Notes: a model not told the origin generated them from the letters alone. A stretch of DNA of 47,776 nt from a virus (IMGVR_UViG_3300048912_000197:1-47776); one strand, 5' to 3'; shown: positions 1 through 47,776, counted from the first letter of the stretch. Translations and numbers: made by a program.

Positions 1-127
1 TGCAAAATCCCATTCTCGCAAACATCCAAGCCCAATTCGGTCAGCAGCCCCCGCAGCAGCAGGCGGCCTTCCCGCAGGCCGCGCAGGTGGCGCAGCCCGG
101 ACAATTCCCGCAGCAGCAGTACCAGCA
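1..127. repeat. Terminal direct duplication, copy 1 (identical to 47650..47776); overlap of a circular or terminally redundant genome assembly
   Basis: Bases 1-127 (tgcaaaatcccattctcg ... cagcagtaccagca) recur exactly at 47650-47776, so the window ends where it begins. Unique length is 47,649 bp. Confidence 0.95.
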
Positions 128-890
128 GCAGCCCATGCAAGCACCTGGCGGCTTCCCGCAGCAGCAGGTCCAGCAGCCCATGCAAGCACCTGGCGGCTTC
201 CCGGCGCAGCCGCAGCAGTTTGCCCCGCAGCAGCAGATCCCCGTGGGCATGCCCGGCATGGGACAGCAGCCCGGCTTCGGCGCGCAGGTGGGCTTCGGCC
301 AGCAGCCTGGCGGCTTCCCCGGTCAGGCGCAGCCCGGCTTCGCAGCGCCCGGCCAGGGTCCTGCGTTCGGCGGTCAGCAGCCTGGCTTCGCAGCGCAGCC
401 GGTGAACATCGATGCCATGCTTTCCGGTGTGGAGTCCGCGCAGGTTAGCACCCGCTATCCGCGCTTGAACGCGGGGCACCTGTACGCGCTGCGCCTCGAG
501 CGCGTGGAATTCAAGAATTTCCGCGAAGGCGGCAGCGGCATGATCGCCGAATTCCGGGTGGAAAACTCGGACGATCCGGGCCTTCCCCCCGGCTCGTACG
601 CCAGCCACCTGATCGCCCACAATGACAACTTTGCGGGCAACGTGCAGCAGTTTGGCCTGGCTTTCTTGGGCATCCAAGGCAGTGCGCCCGAAGCTGCGCA
701 GTACAAGCCCTATATCACCCCGATCCTGAAAATCGACAGCGGCAACGCGCCGCCGAACCCGCAGATCCAGATCAGCATGATCGGACGGATCGCCGGTGCC
801 CGTGCAGAGCGGCGCGAGTCCAAGAAACGCCGCAACCAGGACGGCACGCAGGCCATGTACACGCTGGTCACGTTCACCCCGATGACGTGA
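1..890 (+). CDS. Q/P/G-rich low-complexity protein with a globular C-terminal domain (3' portion; the gene wraps the circular junction and the true ATG is at 47649)
   Basis: The frame of ORF 87..890 stays open back to base 1. It is in phase with the ATG at 47649 once the 127-bp duplicate is collapsed, giving 296 aa in total. About 135 N-terminal residues are Q/P/G/F/A low complexity. The C-terminal ~150 aa have ordinary composition. No domain recognised. Confidence 0.75.
   Translation, partial: QNPILANIQAQFGQQPPQQQAAFPQAAQVAQPGQFPQQQYQQQPMQAPGGFPQQQVQQPMQAPGGFPAQPQQFAPQQQIPVGMPGMGQQPGFGAQVGFGQQPGGFPGQAQPGFAAPGQGPAFGGQQPGFAAQPVNIDAMLSGVESAQVSTRYPRLNAGHLYALRLERVEFKNFREGGSGMIAEFRVENSDDPGLPPGSYASHLIAHNDNFAGNVQQFGLAFLGIQGSAPEAAQYKPYITPILKIDSGNAPPNPQIQISMIGRIAGARAERRESKKRRNQDGTQAMYTLVTFTPMT
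126..202 (+). repeat. In-frame tandem repeat (45-bp period) inside the low-complexity coding region
   Basis: A 32-bp perfect direct repeat cagcagcccatgcaagcacctggcggcttccc lies at 126-157 and 171-202, encoding QQPMQAPGGFP twice. Confidence 0.9.
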
Positions 891-1023: not shown

Positions 1024-1899
1024 GTGCCCGAAGCCTCGATCCAACTAATGTCCGCGCTCGCGCTGCCCGTGGGCGCTGCGCAATTTGATCACGTGTTCTG
1101 CGATGCGCCCTACAGCCCGCACGTTCACAAGAGCGCCAGCACCATGCGCGGGGGCGTTGCCAAGAAACGCGATCTAGGCTTCGCGCACCTGTCCGCGCAG
1201 CTGCGCCGGCACATTGCTGCGCACGTGGCGCACGCTAATTCGTGGTCCCTGATCCACACCGATTGGGAAGGGCTGAACACGTGGCGGCACTCACTCACGG
1301 CAGCCGGCGCGCAGTACATTCGCGCGATCCCGTGGTGCAGGTGGAGCATGCCGCAGCTGTCTGGCGATCGTCCGCCGCAGGGCAGCGAATGCGTGATCGT
1401 GGCCTACGGCAAAAAGCAGGGCGCGAAGATCTGGCACGGCCCCGGCAACCTGGTAAGCCTCGAGCACGAAACGATCCCGAGCTCCCGGCAGCTTTTCGGC
1501 GTGCCTGACGAGGGCGAGATCTCGGCCGTGTACCACAAGTGCCTGCGAGGGGAAGGCAAGCACGGCACGGAAAAGCCGCTCGATCAAATGCTCGATCTGG
1601 TGGAATGGTTCAGCGAGCCCGGCGAATGGATCGTGGACCTGACCACGGGCAGCGGGACTGCGGTTGTGGCTGCGCTCTTGCTCGGGCGAAATTCGATCGG
1701 CTTCGATACCGATCCCGAGTGGGCCCACCCCGAAGCAGGCAAGGCCGTGGCGCGCGTACGTGGCGCGCTGCAGGGCATCCTTTCGGACCGGGACACCGAA
1801 CGCGCGCAGCGGTACCTGGTGGCCAAGGAAGCGCGTGACGTGGACGCCGCGCGCCGCGCCGCCGTGACGGACAAGGCAAGGGCAAGGCTCGCCAAATGA
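1024..1899 (+). CDS. DNA methyltransferase, beta-class N6-adenine/N4-cytosine type (orphan, no nuclease partner seen)
   Basis: 291-aa ORF with a GTG start. An N-terminal F-C-D-A-P-Y-S motif is a DPPY variant (catalytic motif IV). C-terminally, G-T-E-K-P-L is followed by V-D-L-T-T-G-S-G-T (AdoMet-binding motif I). The order IV then I defines the beta class. The stop overlaps the polymerase ATG (ATGA). Confidence 0.85.
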   Translation: MPEASIQLMSALALPVGAAQFDHVFCDAPYSPHVHKSASTMRGGVAKKRDLGFAHLSAQLRRHIAAHVAHANSWSLIHTDWEGLNTWRHSLTAAGAQYIRAIPWCRWSMPQLSGDRPPQGSECVIVAYGKKQGAKIWHGPGNLVSLEHETIPSSRQLFGVPDEGEISAVYHKCLRGEGKHGTEKPLDQMLDLVEWFSEPGEWIVDLTTGSGTAVVAALLLGRNSIGFDTDPEWAHPEAGKAVARVRGALQGILSDRDTERAQRYLVAKEARDVDAARRAAVTDKARARLAK

Positions 1900-4058
1900 G
1901 TGCCCTGATCGAAGGCTACGACGCGCCGCGCATTCGCGGACTGCAGGTGCCGAAGCTCGGGCCGCTCTGCAGCTTCGATACGGAAACGCACCTGATCACC
2001 AACCTGCACCCCGTGCCGCGCATGGTGTGCTTTTCGTACGCCACCGTGGATCCGGTGCTGTCGGGGTGCCTCGCAGCGATCGGGATGCCTGCCAGCGGCG
2101 TGCTGGACGCAGTGACGGGCTGCGCGTTCTTTCGACTGCTGACCACGTGGGGGGTGCGTTGGGTCGGCCATAACACCGCGTATGACCTGGCGGTGATCGC
2201 GCAGTTTGCGGACTACTTCGAACGCGAGCGCTGCGAAGCTGCTGCGCCGGGCCACGGCCCCATGCTGCTCTTGGTCGCGTCACTGCTGCAGGCAGGGCGC
2301 GTCCACGACACCATGATCCGCGAAAAGCTCTTGGACATTTCGCGCGGGCGGCTGCGCGGGTTCAAGGCCGATGACGGTTTTTGGGTCAAGCTAAATTACG
2401 GACTCGAAGATCTCGCGCGCCGTCACTTGAAACTGCAGCTAGACAAGGACACTTGGCGGCTGCGGTACGCAGAGCTGGACGGGCTGCCGATCGAGCAGTG
2501 GCCGCGCGAAGCCGTGGACTATGCGCGGATCGATGCCGAAGCCACGCTAGGCTGCCATCTCAAGCAGGACCGGATCAACGCCAGCACGTCCGAGGGGCCG
2601 TATCACTACGCAGGATCGCTGCAGAATGAAGCTGCGCAGTGCCGCAAATTGTTCGGCCTGCACCTGATCAGCGCCCACGGACTGCGCACCGATCCGGACG
2701 GGATCGATCGCCTCGAGCACCACGCGCAGCACTATTTTGACGAGCTTTCGGCCTTCCTGCAGGAATACGGCTTGGTGCGCTCGGACGGCTCGCGAGACAC
2801 CAAGGCGGCCAAGGATCGCATGGTGGCGCAGTGCGCCGAGCAAAAGCTGCCGGTGCGCATCACCAAGACCGCAGATAAAAAGCTTTCGGCCGGCGAAGCG
2901 CTCAAGCAGTACGAGGGGATCGCGCTGGACAAGGACGCATGCGAAGCCACCGGCGATCTGGTGCTCGAAGCGTACAGCGAGATCACGAGCTTCCGCACGG
3001 TGCTTTCGAAAGACGTGGAAGCACTGCGCCGCGGGCAGTGGCTGCCGATCCACACTCGATTTGACTCGCTGCTGCAGACCGGGCGCACGAGCTCAAGCAA
3101 GCCCAACGTGCAAAACCCGCGCAGGCTCGAAGGCGTGCGCGAGTGTTTCGTGCCCCGCGCAGGTTACTGGTACTTGCAGGCGGACTTTTCCGGCCTCGAG
3201 CTGTCCACCATGGCGGAAGCCGCCAAGGCACTGGTGGGCTGGTCCGCTCTGGCGGAAGCGATCTGCAAGGGGTTGGACGCGCACACCGATCTGGCCGCCA
3301 CCATTCTCGGGATCTCGTATGACGAGTGCCGCGCCTGGCTCAAGCGGAAGAAAACCCACGGCAAGGACGATCCGCAATATCTCGCAGCGTACAACGCGCG
3401 CCAGACCGCCAAGGTGGCTAACTTTGGTTTCCCTGGTGGCCTTGGTGCTGAACGGCTCGTAATCTTCGCGCGCAAGCTGTACCGCGTGACGCTGACGATC
3501 GAGCAGGCGAAGCAGCTCAAGCAGATCTGGCTTTCGAAGTGGCCCGAATTCCGGACGTACTTCGATATCATTGGCAAGCGCGTGGAAGCTGGCGGCGCGA
3601 TCCGGCAGCTATACGTGGATCGCATTCGTGGCGGCGCAACGTATACCGAAGCGTGTAACACATACTTCCAAGGACTCGGATCGGACGTCACCGGGGAAAG
3701 CATTTGGGACCTGGTGGCCGAGTGTTACGGCTTCGGCCCCATGGGGGATCAAAGCCCGCTGTATGGGTGCCGGATCGTCAATTACGTGCATGACGAATTC
3801 ATTTTGGAAGTGCCTGCAGATCTGGCGATCGCAAACGCCGCGGGCAGGCGGCTGCTCGAAGTAATGCGGATCAGCAGCAACCGGTTGGTTCAGCACGTAC
3901 CGATCACCGTTGACGAATTTGTGATCATGCGTTACTGGTCCAAGGACGCGGCCCATATAGAGGACGATCACGGGATCGTGCTGCCGTGGGGCACACCGGC
4001 TAATTGGGAGCAAGGGTTACCCACTGCAGCACTCGGGGGCTTGCCGAAAGCAGCATGA
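1896..4058 (+). CDS. DNA polymerase, family A (Pol I-like) with 3'-5' proofreading exonuclease domain
   Basis: 720 aa. Exonuclease motifs FDTETH, HNTAYDLAV and YARIDAEA are present. Polymerase motif A is DFSGLELS, motif B is RQTAKVANFGFPGGLG, and motif C is NYVHDEFILE. No 5' nuclease domain. Confidence 0.93.
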   Translation: MSALIEGYDAPRIRGLQVPKLGPLCSFDTETHLITNLHPVPRMVCFSYATVDPVLSGCLAAIGMPASGVLDAVTGCAFFRLLTTWGVRWVGHNTAYDLAVIAQFADYFERERCEAAAPGHGPMLLLVASLLQAGRVHDTMIREKLLDISRGRLRGFKADDGFWVKLNYGLEDLARRHLKLQLDKDTWRLRYAELDGLPIEQWPREAVDYARIDAEATLGCHLKQDRINASTSEGPYHYAGSLQNEAAQCRKLFGLHLISAHGLRTDPDGIDRLEHHAQHYFDELSAFLQEYGLVRSDGSRDTKAAKDRMVAQCAEQKLPVRITKTADKKLSAGEALKQYEGIALDKDACEATGDLVLEAYSEITSFRTVLSKDVEALRRGQWLPIHTRFDSLLQTGRTSSSKPNVQNPRRLEGVRECFVPRAGYWYLQADFSGLELSTMAEAAKALVGWSALAEAICKGLDAHTDLAATILGISYDECRAWLKRKKTHGKDDPQYLAAYNARQTAKVANFGFPGGLGAERLVIFARKLYRVTLTIEQAKQLKQIWLSKWPEFRTYFDIIGKRVEAGGAIRQLYVDRIRGGATYTEACNTYFQGLGSDVTGESIWDLVAECYGFGPMGDQSPLYGCRIVNYVHDEFILEVPADLAIANAAGRRLLEVMRISSNRLVQHVPITVDEFVIMRYWSKDAAHIEDDHGIVLPWGTPANWEQGLPTAALGGLPKAA

Positions 4059-5632: not shown

Positions 5633-6601
5633 TCAGTACGCAGTGATCAGCAGGTAGCCCGGGCCGCCGTCAACGCCCGGCAGCCCGATCGTGGACGCGT
5701 CATCCGCGGCCGGGCCGCCCGCGCCGCCGCCGCCGTAACCGTCCGGTGTGGAGTCATAGCCGCTGCCGGAATTGCCGCCGTTGCCGCGGTCAAATTCCCA
5801 ATCGTTAGCGGCCAAGTAGCCCCGCCCGCTTTCGCCGTACTCGGCCCCGCCCGGGGTGCTTTCCGAGTTACCGCCGCCGCCACCACCGGGGTGCCCCACG
5901 TTCTTGCCGTCACCGCCGAAGCCGCCGCTATGGGTGCTTCCCGCCGAAGCCACTGCGCCGATGGCAGACGTACCGGCAGCGCCTGGCGTGGGGCCTGCGC
6001 CACCGCCACCGCCGCACGCGCCCGCACCGCCCGCGCCGCCCGTGGTGGTGCCGCCACCGGTGCCGGCGCTGCCGCCTTGCGCGAGCGCCTTTCCAAAGTA
6101 GGTGTCACCGCCTGCGGTGCCGTTCGCGCCCGAAGCGAGGCCGCCCGCGCCGGCCTTGCCCACCTGGTACAGAACGGACGAGCCGAACGCAGTGCGCAGA
6201 TCGTCCGCCTGATACGTGCGCTTGAACCGCCGCCCGCTGCCGCCGCCGCCGCCCGCGCCAGCGCCTTCGATATCGTTTCCAGCGCCGCCGCCGCCGCCGC
6301 CCGCGATCAATTCCACTTCCACGGTCTGCGCCCAATCGGGCACCGTGTAGCTGCCAGTCACGTTGGACGTACCGCCACGGACCAAGAACGTTTCAGGGCG
6401 CTGCGCCAGGTACCGGATCCACTGCCCAACCAGGTTCCCCCACCAATTCCATTTAAGGGGGCTCGGGCGCTGATTGGGCAGGTAGCCTTCCTGCGAAAGC
6501 CCAACGTCCAGCGCCACCTTGTTCGGCTGTCCAATGTTCGGGCCGGTGGTGTAATTCGCGTTGGTGGCGAAGTCCGGATAATTTGCGGGCTGAGTGGTCA
6601 T
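5633..6601 (-). CDS. glycine-rich-domain tail fibre / receptor-binding protein
   Basis: 322 aa. ...SYTVPDWAQTVEVELIAGGGGGGAGND... is followed by long G-rich tracts. This beta-strand plus poly-G hallmark is typical of phage glycine-rich fibre proteins. It is the last gene of the late strand. Confidence 0.65.
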   Translation of the reverse strand: MTTQPANYPDFATNANYTTGPNIGQPNKVALDVGLSQEGYLPNQRPSPLKWNWWGNLVGQWIRYLAQRPETFLVRGGTSNVTGSYTVPDWAQTVEVELIAGGGGGGAGNDIEGAGAGGGGGSGRRFKRTYQADDLRTAFGSSVLYQVGKAGAGGLASGANGTAGGDTYFGKALAQGGSAGTGGGTTTGGAGGAGACGGGGGAGPTPGAAGTSAIGAVASAGSTHSGGFGGDGKNVGHPGGGGGGNSESTPGGAEYGESGRGYLAANDWEFDRGNGGNSGSGYDSTPDGYGGGGAGGPAADDASTIGLPGVDGGPGYLLITAY

Positions 6602-40462: not shown

Positions 40463-40981
40463 TCACGGCTCCACCAGGTGGCGGCAGCTGTCTTCCAAGG
40501 GCCCCGCGTACTCGGCCCACGTCTTGCGGTAGTTGTGGATCCACCGCCCGATCTCGCCGAAGCGCATGCGATCCATGGCAAGCCCGCATTGGTCGGACGC
40601 TGGCATGTTTTCGCAGACCGGTTCGAAGATCCGGAATTCGAGTGCCGCAGCCACGCGCCGTTCCAAACTAGCGCCCGAGCTCTTGGACCATCCGGGCATC
40701 ATTGCAACTGCGTCGCACCCCATCATTTTGCGGATCGCACCACGCAGCCAAAACTCGTCATCCTGCACGCCTTCGAAATAGTGCCGGGTGTTTGCGTGCG
40801 GGATCTCGGGCATCGCACCGCACTGCGCAAGCATGAACCCATACAGCTCGGCGCGGCGCGCGTTTTGCTCGCGCTCCCACGGATAGGTGCTGCGGTACGG
40901 GCCTGCAACGTAGATCCGCGGCACGTTGCCGGCTTCGCGGATCATTTTCTGGACGTCTTGGGGTGCGTTCGGTTTCATCAT
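40463..40981 (-). CDS. nucleoside 2-deoxyribosyltransferase-like protein (DUF4406 / DUF1937 family) with C-terminal extension
   Basis: 172 aa. ...RIYVAGPYRS...RRAELYGFMLAQCGAMPEIPH...GCDAVAMMPGWSKSSGASLERRVAAAL... matches the 'iYvAGPy ... cD.l..lpGW..S.Ga..E' signature. Confidence 0.6.
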   Translation of the reverse strand: MMKPNAPQDVQKMIREAGNVPRIYVAGPYRSTYPWEREQNARRAELYGFMLAQCGAMPEIPHANTRHYFEGVQDDEFWLRGAIRKMMGCDAVAMMPGWSKSSGASLERRVAAALEFRIFEPVCENMPASDQCGLAMDRMRFGEIGRWIHNYRKTWAEYAGPLEDSCRHLVEP

Positions 40982-43575
40982 TTCACCAGTGCTAACTTGG
41001 GCGCGCCGGCTAGGCCACCAAGGCCGCCACCGTTTGCGCGCCAGTCATCGAATGCCGGGCCGCGTTGGAAGGCTTCGATCACCGGATCGAGCGGTTCCCC
41101 GGTTGTCTCGCACCACTGCGCGAGCACGTCAGCACCCACGTCAATGTAAGACGTGGCGCGCGAGCTCTGGCCTGCGGCACTGAACCGCATTTCCCGGCGC
41201 TGCTTGTGCGGCGCGAATTGCCGCAGAAATTGATCAATGTGGCCAGCATCGATCCGCACGTTCTGCGAAAGATAATCTGCCCAAGCCAGCTGCAGCTTGT
41301 TCGCGTTCACCAGCAGCCGGTACCGCTCCACCAGCGGGCCGCCGCCCGGCACAAGCAGCGCGTGGTTTTCGTGCGGTGCCTCGAGCAGCTGCCACGTGGC
41401 AGCGGGCGCGCCTTTCAAGTCCACGCGGCCATAGTGCTGATCGGGGAAGCGGCAAAATTCGTACAGCCACAAGATCACATGCCACTTGGGGCCCGAGCCT
41501 AGGGACAGCTCGCGCAGCAGGTCACCAGGGTTCGAATTGATCACGAGGCGCGCGCCACGTTTAACGATACGAGTGGCCCGCAGGTACAGGCAGTGCCGTG
41601 CGATCGCGTCGCTCTGCACCATGTGCTTGACGCGATCGCCACCCAGTCCCTGCAGGTAGGCTCGCGCGTTCGGCAGCATGCGCGCGTGGATCATGCGATC
41701 GCCGATCGCTCGCGCGTCCAACATTGTCGCGTCATTCTTGCTGAAAATCTTTTCCGGGTTGTTCGCCGAAGCCACCACGCGCACCGCGCCGCGGATCGTG
41801 CTCTCGCTTTGAAACTTTTTCTTGTAGGGCCGTGAAAAGCTCGTGATCAGCTCGCGAAATTCTTCCGTGCGCGGCAGGCCGCTGGGGCTCGCTGGGATCC
41901 GCTCTTCTGCGTGGATCAACGGGCAGCCGATCAGGGCTTCATTGAAGTTGCCCAAGACCGATTCCATTTTGGTGCAGCCGTTTTCCGTCCAAAGCCTGGC
42001 CACGCCTTCCGCCAGCATGTTCTTGCCGCTGCCGGGCTCGTGAGTGAGGATCAGCGCGGGCGCAGGCTCGGACAGATCGGTCACGGTGGCGAGCCAATCC
42101 AAGACGCTTTCCAGCGTGCTGCCGTTGAATGCTGCGCGCAGGTACCCGTCAAAATCTGCGCTGTACTCGCCTTCGGTCACGCGCGGCACTGCGCAGGCGC
42201 TGACTAGGGTGTGCGTTTCGGTGTCCAAGTAGCTGCGGCGGATCGAGAGATCCAGCACGTTGCCTTCGATGATCCGGCCGTACTCTGCGCAGAGCTCGTC
42301 CACCGTTTTTTCGATCTGCTTGCCGGTCTTGTCATCATACCGGGACAGCTCCACACCGGCCGAGATCGCCGGGGCCAAGAACGTGCGCACGGCGGCCTTG
42401 GTGCCCGCGCCAAATGGGCCCCTGTAGTCCCCATCGAAAAACACCCAGATCCCCGCGCTGGCGTGGACCAGTAGCCACTTGTTAGCAAGGGTGCCGCTTT
42501 CGGCGGTCCAGCGTGCAAGCTCTTCCGCGGTGTAGGGAAGATCGCGCGTGCCGCTGTAGGCTTCGGAAATGCGCCGAGCATTCTCGGACAGGTTCACCGG
42601 GCCGCGCTTGCTGCGGGCCTCGAGCTGCAGCCGCACGAGCTTTTCGCAGACCGCTTGTTCACTGAAATAGGAACCGTCCGCGCCGGGCATTTGCGAAAGC
42701 GAGGCGCGGAAGAGCCCGGCGATCGAAGCGGGATCAGCGTCCGGCCAGGCCCACGCGATTTGGCTGCAGGTCAGAAAGATCGTTTGGTCGCGGTTGCCGT
42801 CCGGTGCGAAAGGCAAACCTTTGCAGACGAGCTTGATCACTTCGCCGGCCGCGATCTTCGCGCCGGTGCCCTTGGACAGTTTCTGCCCGAGCTTTGCGAG
42901 CATTTCCTGCGTGACCGTGAATTTGCCCGGCTCGGCTTCGGCGGCCTTGATCGGCGCACCTTCCGGCGCGTACCGCAGCAGCGCGTCCAGGGACAGCGGC
43001 GGCCCTTGCTGCTCGAAGGCGATCGGCTGCACGTGCGGCTGGTGCGCAGGCAGGAAATACATTCGATTGGCGTTCTTGCACTGCGTATCGGTCAGGCCAG
43101 CGCTCGCGCCGAGCAGGACCATTGCCGCATTCCAAACCGTTTTCCAGAGCGCTGCGGGGCAGGGCTTGTCCAGCGGGATCACCACTCGGCCCTTGATCAT
43201 GTCACCGCCCGAGTAACTAAAGCTGGTGGCGAACGCGTACGCGCACCGCAGCCCTGCCAGGAAATCGATCAGCTGCTGCAGCGGCACGCCCGGCTTGGTG
43301 CCGTCCGCCAGCTTTTCGCCGTCAATGTCGATGACCAGCGCGCAGACGCTGACCACGTGGTGGACTTTCTTCCCCCCGCGCAGCATGGCCGGGGACCAGA
43401 GCGGCATGCCGAATTTGTCCCGCTGCGGGGTGTGCTGCCGCACGATCGCGGAAAGCGCCGGCCAGCCTGCGATCTGCAGCGGCTTGGGTGCGCTGTCGTA
43501 CTCGTCATTAAAAAGTGAAATTTCCAACGTTGCCCCATCGCACCGGGATCGGTGCGTGCCCGTGTTCAGTCCCAA
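40978..43575 (-). CDS. bifunctional DNA primase (AEP/prim-pol type) - SF3 (D5/P4-like) helicase
   Basis: 865 aa. The N-terminal acidic motif is SVCALVIDIDG, and ...DTQCKNANRMYFLPAH... is also present (AEP / VirE-N-like). The C-terminal half has Walker A LTHEPGSGKNMLAEG and Walker B-like CPLIHAEE. The start (TTG at 43575) is uncertain. Confidence 0.8.
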   Translation of the reverse strand: MGLNTGTHRSRCDGATLEISLFNDEYDSAPKPLQIAGWPALSAIVRQHTPQRDKFGMPLWSPAMLRGGKKVHHVVSVCALVIDIDGEKLADGTKPGVPLQQLIDFLAGLRCAYAFATSFSYSGGDMIKGRVVIPLDKPCPAALWKTVWNAAMVLLGASAGLTDTQCKNANRMYFLPAHQPHVQPIAFEQQGPPLSLDALLRYAPEGAPIKAAEAEPGKFTVTQEMLAKLGQKLSKGTGAKIAAGEVIKLVCKGLPFAPDGNRDQTIFLTCSQIAWAWPDADPASIAGLFRASLSQMPGADGSYFSEQAVCEKLVRLQLEARSKRGPVNLSENARRISEAYSGTRDLPYTAEELARWTAESGTLANKWLLVHASAGIWVFFDGDYRGPFGAGTKAAVRTFLAPAISAGVELSRYDDKTGKQIEKTVDELCAEYGRIIEGNVLDLSIRRSYLDTETHTLVSACAVPRVTEGEYSADFDGYLRAAFNGSTLESVLDWLATVTDLSEPAPALILTHEPGSGKNMLAEGVARLWTENGCTKMESVLGNFNEALIGCPLIHAEERIPASPSGLPRTEEFRELITSFSRPYKKKFQSESTIRGAVRVVASANNPEKIFSKNDATMLDARAIGDRMIHARMLPNARAYLQGLGGDRVKHMVQSDAIARHCLYLRATRIVKRGARLVINSNPGDLLRELSLGSGPKWHVILWLYEFCRFPDQHYGRVDLKGAPAATWQLLEAPHENHALLVPGGGPLVERYRLLVNANKLQLAWADYLSQNVRIDAGHIDQFLRQFAPHKQRREMRFSAAGQSSRATSYIDVGADVLAQWCETTGEPLDPVIEAFQRGPAFDDWRANGGGLGGLAGAPKLALVK

Positions 43576-45896: not shown

Positions 45897-47621
45897 GTGG
45901 GAGCTACAGCGGTTTCGGATAGCTTGGAAATGCGGCGCATTCGTGCGGTGCCGCGCCGTCAGTGGGAGCCAGATCAGGCGCAAGCCCTGGCCGATCACAT
46001 GACGCGAGCACTGGCGAAAACGCCGAACCCCTATCCGGGGCCGCTGTACCCCGCCCAAGCGATTGCGCTTTGGGAGCTCGCAGAGTGTGGCGGACTTTTC
46101 GCGCCGCTGCCGGTGGGCGGTGGCAAGACGCTGGTGGCGTTGCTCGCGCCGTACATGCTCGGATCGGTGCGGCCCCTGCTGGTGGTGCGCGCGGCACTCG
46201 AAAAGAAAATGCGCCGCAAAATGGTGGAGCTGGCCGAGCACTGGCCGATCCCCAATTTCATCAGGATCACCACGTACGAGGCGCTAGGCCGAGTGAGTGC
46301 CAAGACGCTGCTGGACGAGTACCGGCCCGATTCGATCATTTGTGACGAGGCGCACCGAATCAAAAACCCTCGAGCAGCAGTCACGATCCAGATCTCGGGC
46401 TACATGAACACGCACACCGAATGCAAATACGTGGATCTTTCCGGCACGCCCGGGAAAATTAGCGTAACCGAATTTGCGCCCCGGCTTCGGTGGGCGCAGC
46501 GGTTTGCTGGTGGCTTCCCGCTGCCGAACGGCGCGGACGAACGCAAGACGTGGGCGGCGGTGCTGGACGAAAAGGAAGATCGCAACGGCGACCGCAGGCC
46601 CATGCCGGGCGCGCTGCTGACCCTGGCAGGGCCGGAAGACATGATCACCACGGACAAGGACGGCAACCAATGGCAGGAGCACGATCCGTACACGATCGCG
46701 CGCCGCGCATGGGGCCGCCGTTTCCACCAGACCAAGGGGGTGGTGGTGACCACGGACGATCCGCACGCGGTGGGCGCGTCCCTGCTCGTGCAATCGATGA
46801 CGCTGCCGAAGCGCTGCCCGGCGATCGAAGCGCACCTGCGCGAGCTGCGCGCCACGTGGGAACGTCCGGACGGGTGGGCCTTCGCCGAAGCCCCGCAGGT
46901 GTGGGCCTGCGCGCGGCAGCTGGCACTCGGTTTCTATTACAAGTGGAAGCAGACCCCACCGCCCGAGTGGATCGAAGCTCGGCGCGCGTGGGCCAAGTAC
47001 GTGCGGCAGCAGATCAACGCAGGGCGCGTGCAGAGCGAGCTGGACTGCGCGCAAACCTTCCCGGACGCGCTGCAGCTGACCGAGTGGCAGGCAATCAAGG
47101 ACCAGTACAAGCACGAGACCGAATGCGTTTGGATCTCGGGCGAGCCTTTGAAGCTCTGCGCAGACTGGCTCGCGCAGAACGACCGCGGGATCTGCTGGGT
47201 GGCGCACCGCTATTTTGGTGAGGCGCTGTCCTACGTCACCGGGCGGCCCTACTTCCGGGAAGAGGCCCACGACGCGCAGGGCAACTACGTGGAAGATGCC
47301 AGCGGCCCGATCATTCTCTCGATCCAAGCCGGTCGCGAAGGCTTGGATCTCCAATTCAAGTGGGACACCAACCTGATCACCGCGCCCATGTCCGGCGCTG
47401 ACGATTGGGAGCAGCTGCTAGCGCGCACGCACCGCCGTGGCCAAGACTCGGACACGGTCAGCGCGTACGTGTTCACGAATTGTGACGAGCACGTGGCCAG
47501 CATGCAGAGCGCGCTGGCACTTTCAACCGCGTTCAGTCGTGACACGCTGCACGCAAAACCGAAGCTCTTGTATTGCGATCTGGACCTGCTCAATTTGTGG
47601 CCGAGTCAGATCGCTGCGTAA
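45897..47621 (+). CDS. SNF2-family DEAH-box helicase / ATP-dependent translocase
   Basis: 574 aa. Motif I is PVGGGKTLVAL, motif II is ICDEAHRIKN, motif V-like is ILSIQAGREGLDLQ, and motif VI is QLLARTHRRGQ. The start is uncertain (GTG at 45897). Confidence 0.85.
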   Translation: MGATAVSDSLEMRRIRAVPRRQWEPDQAQALADHMTRALAKTPNPYPGPLYPAQAIALWELAECGGLFAPLPVGGGKTLVALLAPYMLGSVRPLLVVRAALEKKMRRKMVELAEHWPIPNFIRITTYEALGRVSAKTLLDEYRPDSIICDEAHRIKNPRAAVTIQISGYMNTHTECKYVDLSGTPGKISVTEFAPRLRWAQRFAGGFPLPNGADERKTWAAVLDEKEDRNGDRRPMPGALLTLAGPEDMITTDKDGNQWQEHDPYTIARRAWGRRFHQTKGVVVTTDDPHAVGASLLVQSMTLPKRCPAIEAHLRELRATWERPDGWAFAEAPQVWACARQLALGFYYKWKQTPPPEWIEARRAWAKYVRQQINAGRVQSELDCAQTFPDALQLTEWQAIKDQYKHETECVWISGEPLKLCADWLAQNDRGICWVAHRYFGEALSYVTGRPYFREEAHDAQGNYVEDASGPIILSIQAGREGLDLQFKWDTNLITAPMSGADDWEQLLARTHRRGQDSDTVSAYVFTNCDEHVASMQSALALSTAFSRDTLHAKPKLLYCDLDLLNLWPSQIAA

Positions 47622-47648
47622 CGTCCGAAACCACAAGGATCGATCCAA

Positions 47649-47776
47649 ATGCAAAATCCCATTCTCGCAAACATCCAAGCCCAATTCGGTCAGCAGCCCC
47701 CGCAGCAGCAGGCGGCCTTCCCGCAGGCCGCGCAGGTGGCGCAGCCCGGACAATTCCCGCAGCAGCAGTACCAGCA
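47649..47776 (+). CDS. 5' end of the junction-spanning Q/P/G-rich protein gene (continues at base 128 after removing the duplicated 127 bp)
   Basis: The ATG at 47649 has AGGA 9 nt upstream. The reading frame runs off the window end in phase with 1..890. Confidence 0.75.
   Translation, partial: MQNPILANIQAQFGQQPPQQQAAFPQAAQVAQPGQFPQQQYQ
47650..47776. repeat. Terminal direct duplication, copy 2 (identical to 1..127)
   Basis: Exact 127-bp match to the window start. Confidence 0.95.

Follow-up and report, generated by a model that had tools for sequence, protein, structure and literature searches.

What a protein with a long Gln/Pro/Gly/Phe-rich low-complexity region might do between the helicase and the DNA polymerase of a phage is the question raised by a gene lying across the ends of IMGVR_UViG_3300048912_000197, a stretch of viral DNA of 47,776 nucleotides (nt) that was analysed whole and is here called the window. 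The evidence suggests, with a probability of roughly 0.6, that the gene encodes the replication single-stranded DNA (ssDNA)-binding protein (SSB) of the phage, in which a divergent oligonucleotide/oligosaccharide-binding (OB) domain is preceded by an N-terminal tract acting like the linker of an SSB. That the product is an ssDNA-binding replication protein appears likely, and a role of the tract in self-association or cooperativity is a more tentative proposal, standing slightly below even odds; we infer the ssDNA binding, the self-association and any condensate alike.

The first 127 nt of the window are identical to positions 47650-47776, an exact terminal overlap of the k = 127 type, and the contig is therefore circular or terminally redundant, with 47,649 unique bases. 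The gene spans this junction, which falls within the low-complexity tract. It starts at the ATG 47649-47651 (the A being base 47649; 47649-47776, + strand, of which 47650-47776 duplicate window 1-127) and continues through window 1-890 (+), where bases 1-2 complete the ATG and the stop codon occupies 888-890, giving a product of 296 amino acids (aa) and 31.6 kDa. The calling of open reading frames (ORFs) had reported no more than 87-890, since the frame extends beyond the start of the window.

Predicted fold, family and genomic setting of the C-terminal domain

Residues 135-296 constitute a globular domain of 162 aa. AlphaFold2 applied to a single sequence gave a useless model, with a predicted local distance difference test score (pLDDT) of 36, while the model built on a 22-sequence alignment of the family reached a pLDDT of 80.6 and a predicted template modelling score (pTM) of 0.75. 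The latter predicts the order β1-β2-β3-helix-helix-β4-β5 of a five-stranded OB barrel (strands at model residues 26-39, 45-56, 66-72, 130-144 and 150-160, helices at 78-88 and 95-112). The predicted OB-fold, to which AlphaFold2 and the Foldseek searches of PDB and BFVD all point, occupies residues 160-294 (window 477-881, +). Residues 135-159 (VNIDAMLSGVESAQ..., 402-476, +), which precede it, are the tail with which the conserved core starts at its N-terminal side; they align to the N-terminus of the family, and residues 135-148 among them (model residues 1-14) have a pLDDT below 50.

A structural comparison of the C-domain by Foldseek, as the sequence-only reading had advised, returned ssDNA-binding OB folds as neighbours. 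The top matches in PDB were to PrgE (8s4s/8s4t, E 3e-5 to 1e-3, template modelling (TM) score 0.41-0.52), followed by SsbA and SsbB of Staphylococcus and Bacillus, RPA and other bacterial SSBs, and SSB-type OB folds make up most of the top 50. BFVD yielded 62 matches with E ≤ 1e-3, among them several proteins labelled 'DUF669 domain-containing' and numerous hypothetical proteins of actinophages.

The relatives of the domain are few. Neither a tblastn search of 50,697 phage records with the C-domain as query (E ≤ 1) nor a single-sequence word-indexed protein search gave any match; the window protein itself is absent from the latter collection, probably because its gene spans the contig ends. 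A single-protein search of IMG/VR and JGI metagenomes found no close relatives of it. Searching 1.84 billion representatives exhaustively, phmmer found 12 weak relatives (E 9e-6 to 7e-4, 30-41 % identity), and a profile made from these collected 21 proteins (E 1e-17 to 7e-45), all of them unnamed and without Pfam domains. The family is rare and metagenomic, with about 30 clusters plus one GenBank phage protein. Its core of about 150 aa begins with MGxFxGxENA, which is followed by the 'G.Y.L.I' strand, and further motifs are 'FI.EF.V.ES..P..P.GS', the helix 'GN.K.F..A' and the C-terminal 'TK.G..FT.H.W.P'. In the window protein the C-domain is basic (pI about 9), with a Lys/Arg-rich β4-β5 loop, ERRESKKRRNQ.

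The genomic setting is constant. In the window the gene lies between a SNF2/ResIII-type helicase (45897-47621, +) belonging to the same replication module and, beyond an N6/N4 methyltransferase (1024-1899), a family-A DNA polymerase with 3'-5' exonuclease (PolA; 1896-4058, +); the coordinates agree with the position first described for it. Seven contexts were informative, namely the window and those of six relatives (seven loci: L002, L003, L004, L006/L007, L008 and L012), and in all of them the gene stands between a SNF2/ResIII/DEAD-type helicase and a family-A polymerase, with at most three small genes intervening, which sustains the role in DNA metabolism that had been suggested from its position. 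A primase and a PD-(D/E)XK nuclease are encoded upstream of it in these module contexts. The flanking genes are homologous by tblastn (PolA 32-41 % identity, SNF2 30-38 %, nuclease 27-30 %, and the primase 27-29 % across contigs at two loci only), and what is seen is a single replication module in which the family gene keeps its place. Judged by PolA, the GenBank phage closest to the window is MW202816.1 (28 % identity), which has the same module and, in the slot of the family, a 210-aa hypothetical protein. Of the 20 ORFs of the window that were scanned, mostly from the early region, none was recognised as another SSB, and the structural genes of the window are on the opposite strand. The family is an unannotated, very divergent SSB-like one, tied to one replication module.

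The relation of this family to a known group of phage SSBs was followed at the level of profiles. The DUF669 proteins are regarded as OB-fold SSBs, a highly evolved group with a link to the SSB of N4 (PMC4889955). Against Pfam DUF669 (PF05037) and phrog_378, the latter annotated as 'single strand DNA binding protein', the window protein gave nothing at E ≤ 10 and remains below threshold, and 10 of the 22 family members gave matches to both (best E 0.016 and 0.0026, respectively), all of them sub-threshold. The family profile aligned with the MW202816.1 slot protein at an hhalign probability of 95 % (E 3e-8, 127 columns from residue 1). That protein in turn matches phrog_378 near full length (E 0.0025) and DUF669 over positions 14-126 of 138 (E 0.16), and it aligned over 114 columns (hhalign P 0.0015) with a reference alignment of nine Gram-positive DUF669-type SSBs (L014-L022, from Lc-Nu, 98202, P7134, B025, JX01, A2, Javan484, 858 and JCL1032). 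All nine reference proteins end in (D/N/L)DLPF or NLPF, like the C-terminal tip of bacterial SSBs; eight of their genes directly follow a helicase gene, most being then followed by a primase, the Lc-Nu gene following a Sak4-like annealing protein rather than a helicase, and JCL1032 ORF45 possesses a Q/P-rich linker.

From these data the family is probably a distant sister of the DUF669/phrog_378/N4-type phage SSBs, structurally closest to PrgE. The loose resemblance to DUF669-type OB proteins noticed in the sequence-only reading is accordingly upheld as far as strand order, the Foldseek neighbours and the sub-threshold matches of the relatives go; formal membership fails, given the missing match of the window protein, hhalign P values of 0.007-0.012 and the absent acidic tip. 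The window protein is therefore described as working like an SSB of the DUF669/PrgE type and is not assigned to PF05037.

A DUF669 member from HK620 was demonstrated to be an SSB in vitro (PMC5928155). The protein (hkaK, L005 4481-5068, -) is 'DUF669 domain-containing' according to NCBI, yet it falls in phrog_743, not in phrog_378, and gives no Pfam match at E ≤ 1 in the Pfam copy used, so that the 'DUF669' label spans at least two poorly connected sequence groups. As a bridge it proved a poor one, its hhalign P being 0.009 against the family and 0.067 against the MW202816.1 protein.

The N-terminal tract, its counterparts in relatives and neighbouring features

The tract that gave rise to the question comprises residues 1-134 (window 1-401, +). 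It is real and in frame, as is the sequence quoted from it beforehand; only the sizes need adjustment, from about 135 to 134 residues for the tract and from about 150 to 162 aa for the globular part. Its composition is Q 31 %, P 17-18 %, G 16 %, A 13 % and F 8 %, with no Lys, Arg, Asp or Glu, and its Shannon entropy is 2.2-2.8 bits, against 3.3-3.8 bits in the C-terminal part. The 13 aromatic residues (Phe/Tyr) are spaced at intervals of 5-19, mostly in PGF, GGF or GFG contexts, FG occurring four times and GF seven times. The sole non-repetitive portion is residues 1-13 (MQNPILANIQAQF). The guanine plus cytosine (GC) fractions at the three codon positions, 0.83/0.47/0.82, are low at the second and high at the third position, as in the remainder of the gene and in PolA.

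Repeats are evident in the DNA of the tract. A tandem duplication of 45 bp (105-210, +; 2.3 copies, 88 % match) encodes QQPMQAPGGFP twice and includes an exact repeat of 33 nt (at 126 and at 171). A degenerate array of 18-bp units (251-311, +; 3.4 copies) encodes the (Q)QPGFG(A) units. From these repeats it follows that the tract grew by slippage or duplication, in part recently; the copy numbers are those assembled in the contig. In the Michelitsch-Weissman criterion a Q/N-rich prion-like region is one with at least 30 Gln + Asn in a window of 80 residues, and residues 2-81 contain 33. The high proline content (17-18 %) speaks against amyloid formation by the tract, and its composition suggests that it is disordered.

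Comparable regions occur in the relatives. Eight of 13 representatives, the window protein included, bear Pro/Gln/Ala/Gly-rich extensions of 56-134 aa at the N-terminal end (window protein, P0004, P0005 and P0007), at the C-terminal end (P0004, P0007, P0008, P0009, P0010 and P0012) or at both, so that the family varies within itself in the presence of a tract and in the end that carries it. Regular PG(F/Y) units are found in three of these proteins, as PGY in P0004 and P0007 and as PGF in the window protein, and charged residues are missing from both P0004 extensions, as they are from the window tract. P0004 is identical on contigs from two samples and P0007 was found on three contigs (two shown, ENA and Logan); because they recur on independent contigs from different samples, the tracts of the relatives are not assembly artefacts.

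Past a Pro-rich spacer, four of the relatives (P0007, P0009, P0010 and P0012) have the C-terminal motif FPPAGWTAHPSAPGFYYRGQEV..EA.LRA, which is present twice in P0012 (loci with the motif: L008 659-1768, L012 3568-4371 and L013 1213-2034). The motif looks like the opening hairpin of a WW domain, gave no Pfam or PDB match and is absent from the window protein. It could be the partner-binding 'tip' of those SSB-like proteins.

Immediately downstream of the gene, 7 nt past the stop codon, there is a perfect GC-rich hairpin of 16 bp with a 6-nt loop and no U-tract (897-934, +). The region 885-1030 folds better than its shuffles (z -2.3), and a consensus terminator scan did not pick up the hairpin. 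It may be a terminator, an attenuator or an RNA-stabilising element, and in the first two cases it may set apart an abundant SSB-like product from the downstream enzymes. The hairpin is followed at about 938-992 by a tRNA-like piece, a 7-bp hairpin and then the T-loop motif GGTTCGAGTCC. ARAGORN found no tRNA here, Rfam gave a weak tRNA-like (mascRNA) match (E 0.31), and two scans for exact patterns of the piece in GTDB genomes returned 0 and 2 matches, neither of them inside a tRNA.

Further observations concern the module and its surroundings. Directly downstream of a DUF5906 primase gene (window 40978-43575, -) lies a gene for a nucleoside 2-deoxyribosyltransferase-like protein (40463-40981, -; phrog_355, E 3e-18), both being opposite in strand to the remaining replication module; this may point to modification of nucleotides or of DNA bases. 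A 322-aa protein with a Gly_rich_2 domain (PF21722, E 2e-11) is encoded at 5633-6601 (-), on the margin of the structural block of the minus strand. In two of the relatives' contigs, enzymes of the module carry inteins, with Intein_splicing domains accompanied by HNH_3 in the PolA of L003 (8578-11742) and by LAGLIDADG_3 in the helicase of L012 (81-3161).

Proposed function and alternative explanations

If the gene encodes the replication SSB, the OB domain would coat the ssDNA made by the helicase and the primase of the module, and would pass the coated strand on to the family-A polymerase encoded nearby. The tract at the N-terminus would fill the role of the C-terminal disordered linker in bacterial SSBs. 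Its aromatic residues may be regarded as stickers set in a Gln/Pro/Gly spacer, making weak multivalent contacts between tracts and possibly between tract and OB domain; such contacts would raise cooperativity on ssDNA, and they might also sustain a condensate-like pool at the replication site or tether partners. Residues 1-13, with I5, I9 and F13 on one helical face, are a candidate docking peptide in place of the absent acidic tip, a purely conjectural suggestion.

The sequence-only reading had considered so long a tract unusual for a phage protein. This claim is to be toned down, since disordered Q/G/P-rich, prion-like regions are the norm for SSBs, which were among the top-scoring prion-like proteins in a survey of phage proteomes (PMC5694896). 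Multivalent self-association of the tract, proposed at the same time, is a reasonable suggestion if the linker of E. coli SSB is taken as the analogue (PMC7584906).

Several observations weigh against the identification as an SSB with a linker-like tract. The fold is a prediction, and the TM-scores of the Foldseek matches are moderate (0.4-0.5). The whole protein and the C-domain have no match in Pfam, PHROGs, NCBIfam or PADLOC, and a search of the PDB sequences with the family profile was likewise negative. Comparison of the family profiles with the nine-SSB alignment by hhalign was weak (P 0.012 and 0.0067), as was that with the HK620 group (P 0.009); the alignments are in register, and those with DUF669-type SSBs span just 34-40 columns, corresponding to the β1-β2 hairpin. 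The Trp residues of strands β3 and β5, conserved in the relatives, are replaced in the window protein. Its C-terminus, ...RRNQDGTQAMYTLVTFTPMT, has no acidic tip of the DDLPF/DDDIPF type, and an acidic tail is typical of DUF669-type SSBs according to Kazlauskas et al. (PMC4889955). Finally, translation could start internally at ATG 415, giving a product that would begin where the tract-less relatives begin.

The tight linkage of the gene to PolA and the SNF2 helicase would also suit an OB protein of the replication module that is not a general SSB. Such a protein might be an accessory of the polymerase or helicase, for instance a processivity or loading factor whose tract is a flexible tether to its partners, or else a recombination mediator or an annealing protein like T7 gp2.5. 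The absence of the canonical C-terminal tip is in keeping with this, and the best structural match, PrgE, is itself an atypical OB protein, which binds double-stranded DNA as well as ssDNA and is dispensable for conjugation (PMC11137577). The structural neighbours, however, are overwhelmingly ssDNA-binding OB folds, the module offered no other SSB candidate, and the weak matches that recur go to SSB families and not to others; an accessory factor is the strongest of the alternatives and still an unlikely one.

Somewhat less probable again is the view that the tract has no function, being a tolerated product of slippage and duplication in a GC-rich genome, or that it is not translated at all owing to an internal start such as ATG 415, the core of 157-162 aa working alone. 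Expansion by slippage is what the 45-bp duplication with its 33-nt exact repeat and the 18-bp array record, most family members (144-186 aa) are without an extension, and the extensions are conserved in neither sequence nor position; moreover the contig junction lies inside the tract as assembled. Opposed to this view is the start region, in which a Shine-Dalgarno-like AAGGA (47635-47639, +) is placed 9 nt 5' of ATG 47649, the first start codon past the in-frame TAA 47619-47621 that ends the SNF2 gene. Over 400 nt the reading frame of the tract remains intact, its GC at the third codon position is coding-like, and similar in-frame extensions are present in the eight representatives mentioned, on independent contigs. 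Neither P0004 nor P0005 has a Met where the equivalent of the internal start would lie. A relative of 65 % GC (P0029, on L003) has no extension whatever, and GC content alone is ruled out as the cause of the tract.

A stronger form of the condensate proposal holds that the tract makes the SSB a scaffold nucleating a membraneless replication compartment, a cohesive GLFG-like condensate on ssDNA in which helicase and polymerase would be concentrated and from which host nucleases would perhaps be excluded. The interchangeable N- and C-terminal tracts of the family would then reflect selection for condensation and not for a specific contact, and in relatives the Pro-rich, PPxY-like tracts might be bound by the WW-like motif to give head-to-tail networks. 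We regard this as improbable, slightly more so than a tract without function.

Least credible by far is a function unrelated to DNA (a virion or scaffolding, host-takeover or anti-defence protein for which the OB-like prediction misleads), to which the want of a significant sequence match to any annotated family and the occurrence of Q/P-rich tracts in structural phage proteins might lend colour, but from which the confident fold prediction with its consistent structural neighbours and a replication-operon position conserved across distantly related phages lead away, a defence or anti-defence protein being rejected by the absent PADLOC match together with this synteny and a virion protein by the synteny and the opposite strand of the structural module.

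With the replication SSB preferred, a function is proposed for a hitherto unannotated family of about 30 metagenomic clusters and one GenBank phage protein, and the apparently missing SSB slot is filled in a widespread phage replication module made of primase, nuclease, SNF2 helicase and PolA. The family also represents a natural experiment, as the tract is absent, N-terminal, C-terminal or double in one small group of proteins, some of which have no acidic tip. With its help, what the linker contributes to cooperativity and condensation could be told apart from the recruitment of partners by the tip. If condensation is indeed driven by the tract, the phage would provide a compact case of phase separation by stickers and spacers.

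Comparison with known systems

The DUF669/phrog_378/N4-type SSBs, such as HK620 HkaK, Lc-Nu ORF30 and A2 ORF34, share with the window protein a small single OB-type domain (about 140-160 aa), a 'G.Y...I' β1 strand a few residues from the N-terminus, a helical insert between β3 and β4, a gene adjoining that of a helicase in the replication module, and a low-complexity linker beside the OB domain. The window protein differs from them in its sub-threshold similarity, in the absence of the acidic tip and in a disordered region that is N-terminal and 2-4 times longer.

PrgE, from the Enterococcus plasmid pCF10 (PDB 8S4S/8S4T), is comparable in that a conserved short N-terminal tail precedes β1 in the family. 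In PrgE the OB-fold unit is monomeric and the short N-terminal tail contacts a neighbour, which supports a filament of the beads-on-a-string kind (PMC11137577). Unlike the window protein, PrgE lacks a low-complexity region and is encoded on a plasmid, in a type IV secretion operon, and its sequence has no detectable similarity to the family profile. Contacts between neighbours on DNA are mediated by an N-terminal segment in T4 gp32 as well.

The FG-nucleoporin domains of the GLFG type offer an analogy only. They too have an uncharged spacer of Gln, Gly, Pro and Ala in which Phe recurs at regular intervals in GF/FG contexts, a composition associated with cohesive domains forming hydrogels or condensates. 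There is no homology, the biological setting is another one, and the window tract is much shorter and contains 17-18 % proline.

Bacterial SSBs (PF00436) combine, like the window protein, an OB domain with an uncharged, prion-like region rich in Gly, Gln and Pro. In E. coli SSB the Gln/Gly/Pro-rich linker is needed for liquid-liquid phase separation and contributes to long-range cooperativity (PMC7584906), and the corresponding domain of Campylobacter hominis SSB behaves as a prion, one of three bacterial prion domains characterised (PMC11175392). The window protein is not a canonical SSB in this sense: it has no Pfam match, PF00436 included, its disordered region is N-terminal and the acidic tip is absent. 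The tract measures 134 aa against about 56 aa and has more Gln and Phe and less Gly, when set beside the linker of E. coli SSB. New with respect to these systems are the divergent family itself, its internal variation in the presence and the end of the tract, and the reversed architecture, with the long tract at the N-terminus and no acidic tip. What the gene most likely encodes is a familiar kind of protein in an uncommon arrangement and not a new kind of system.

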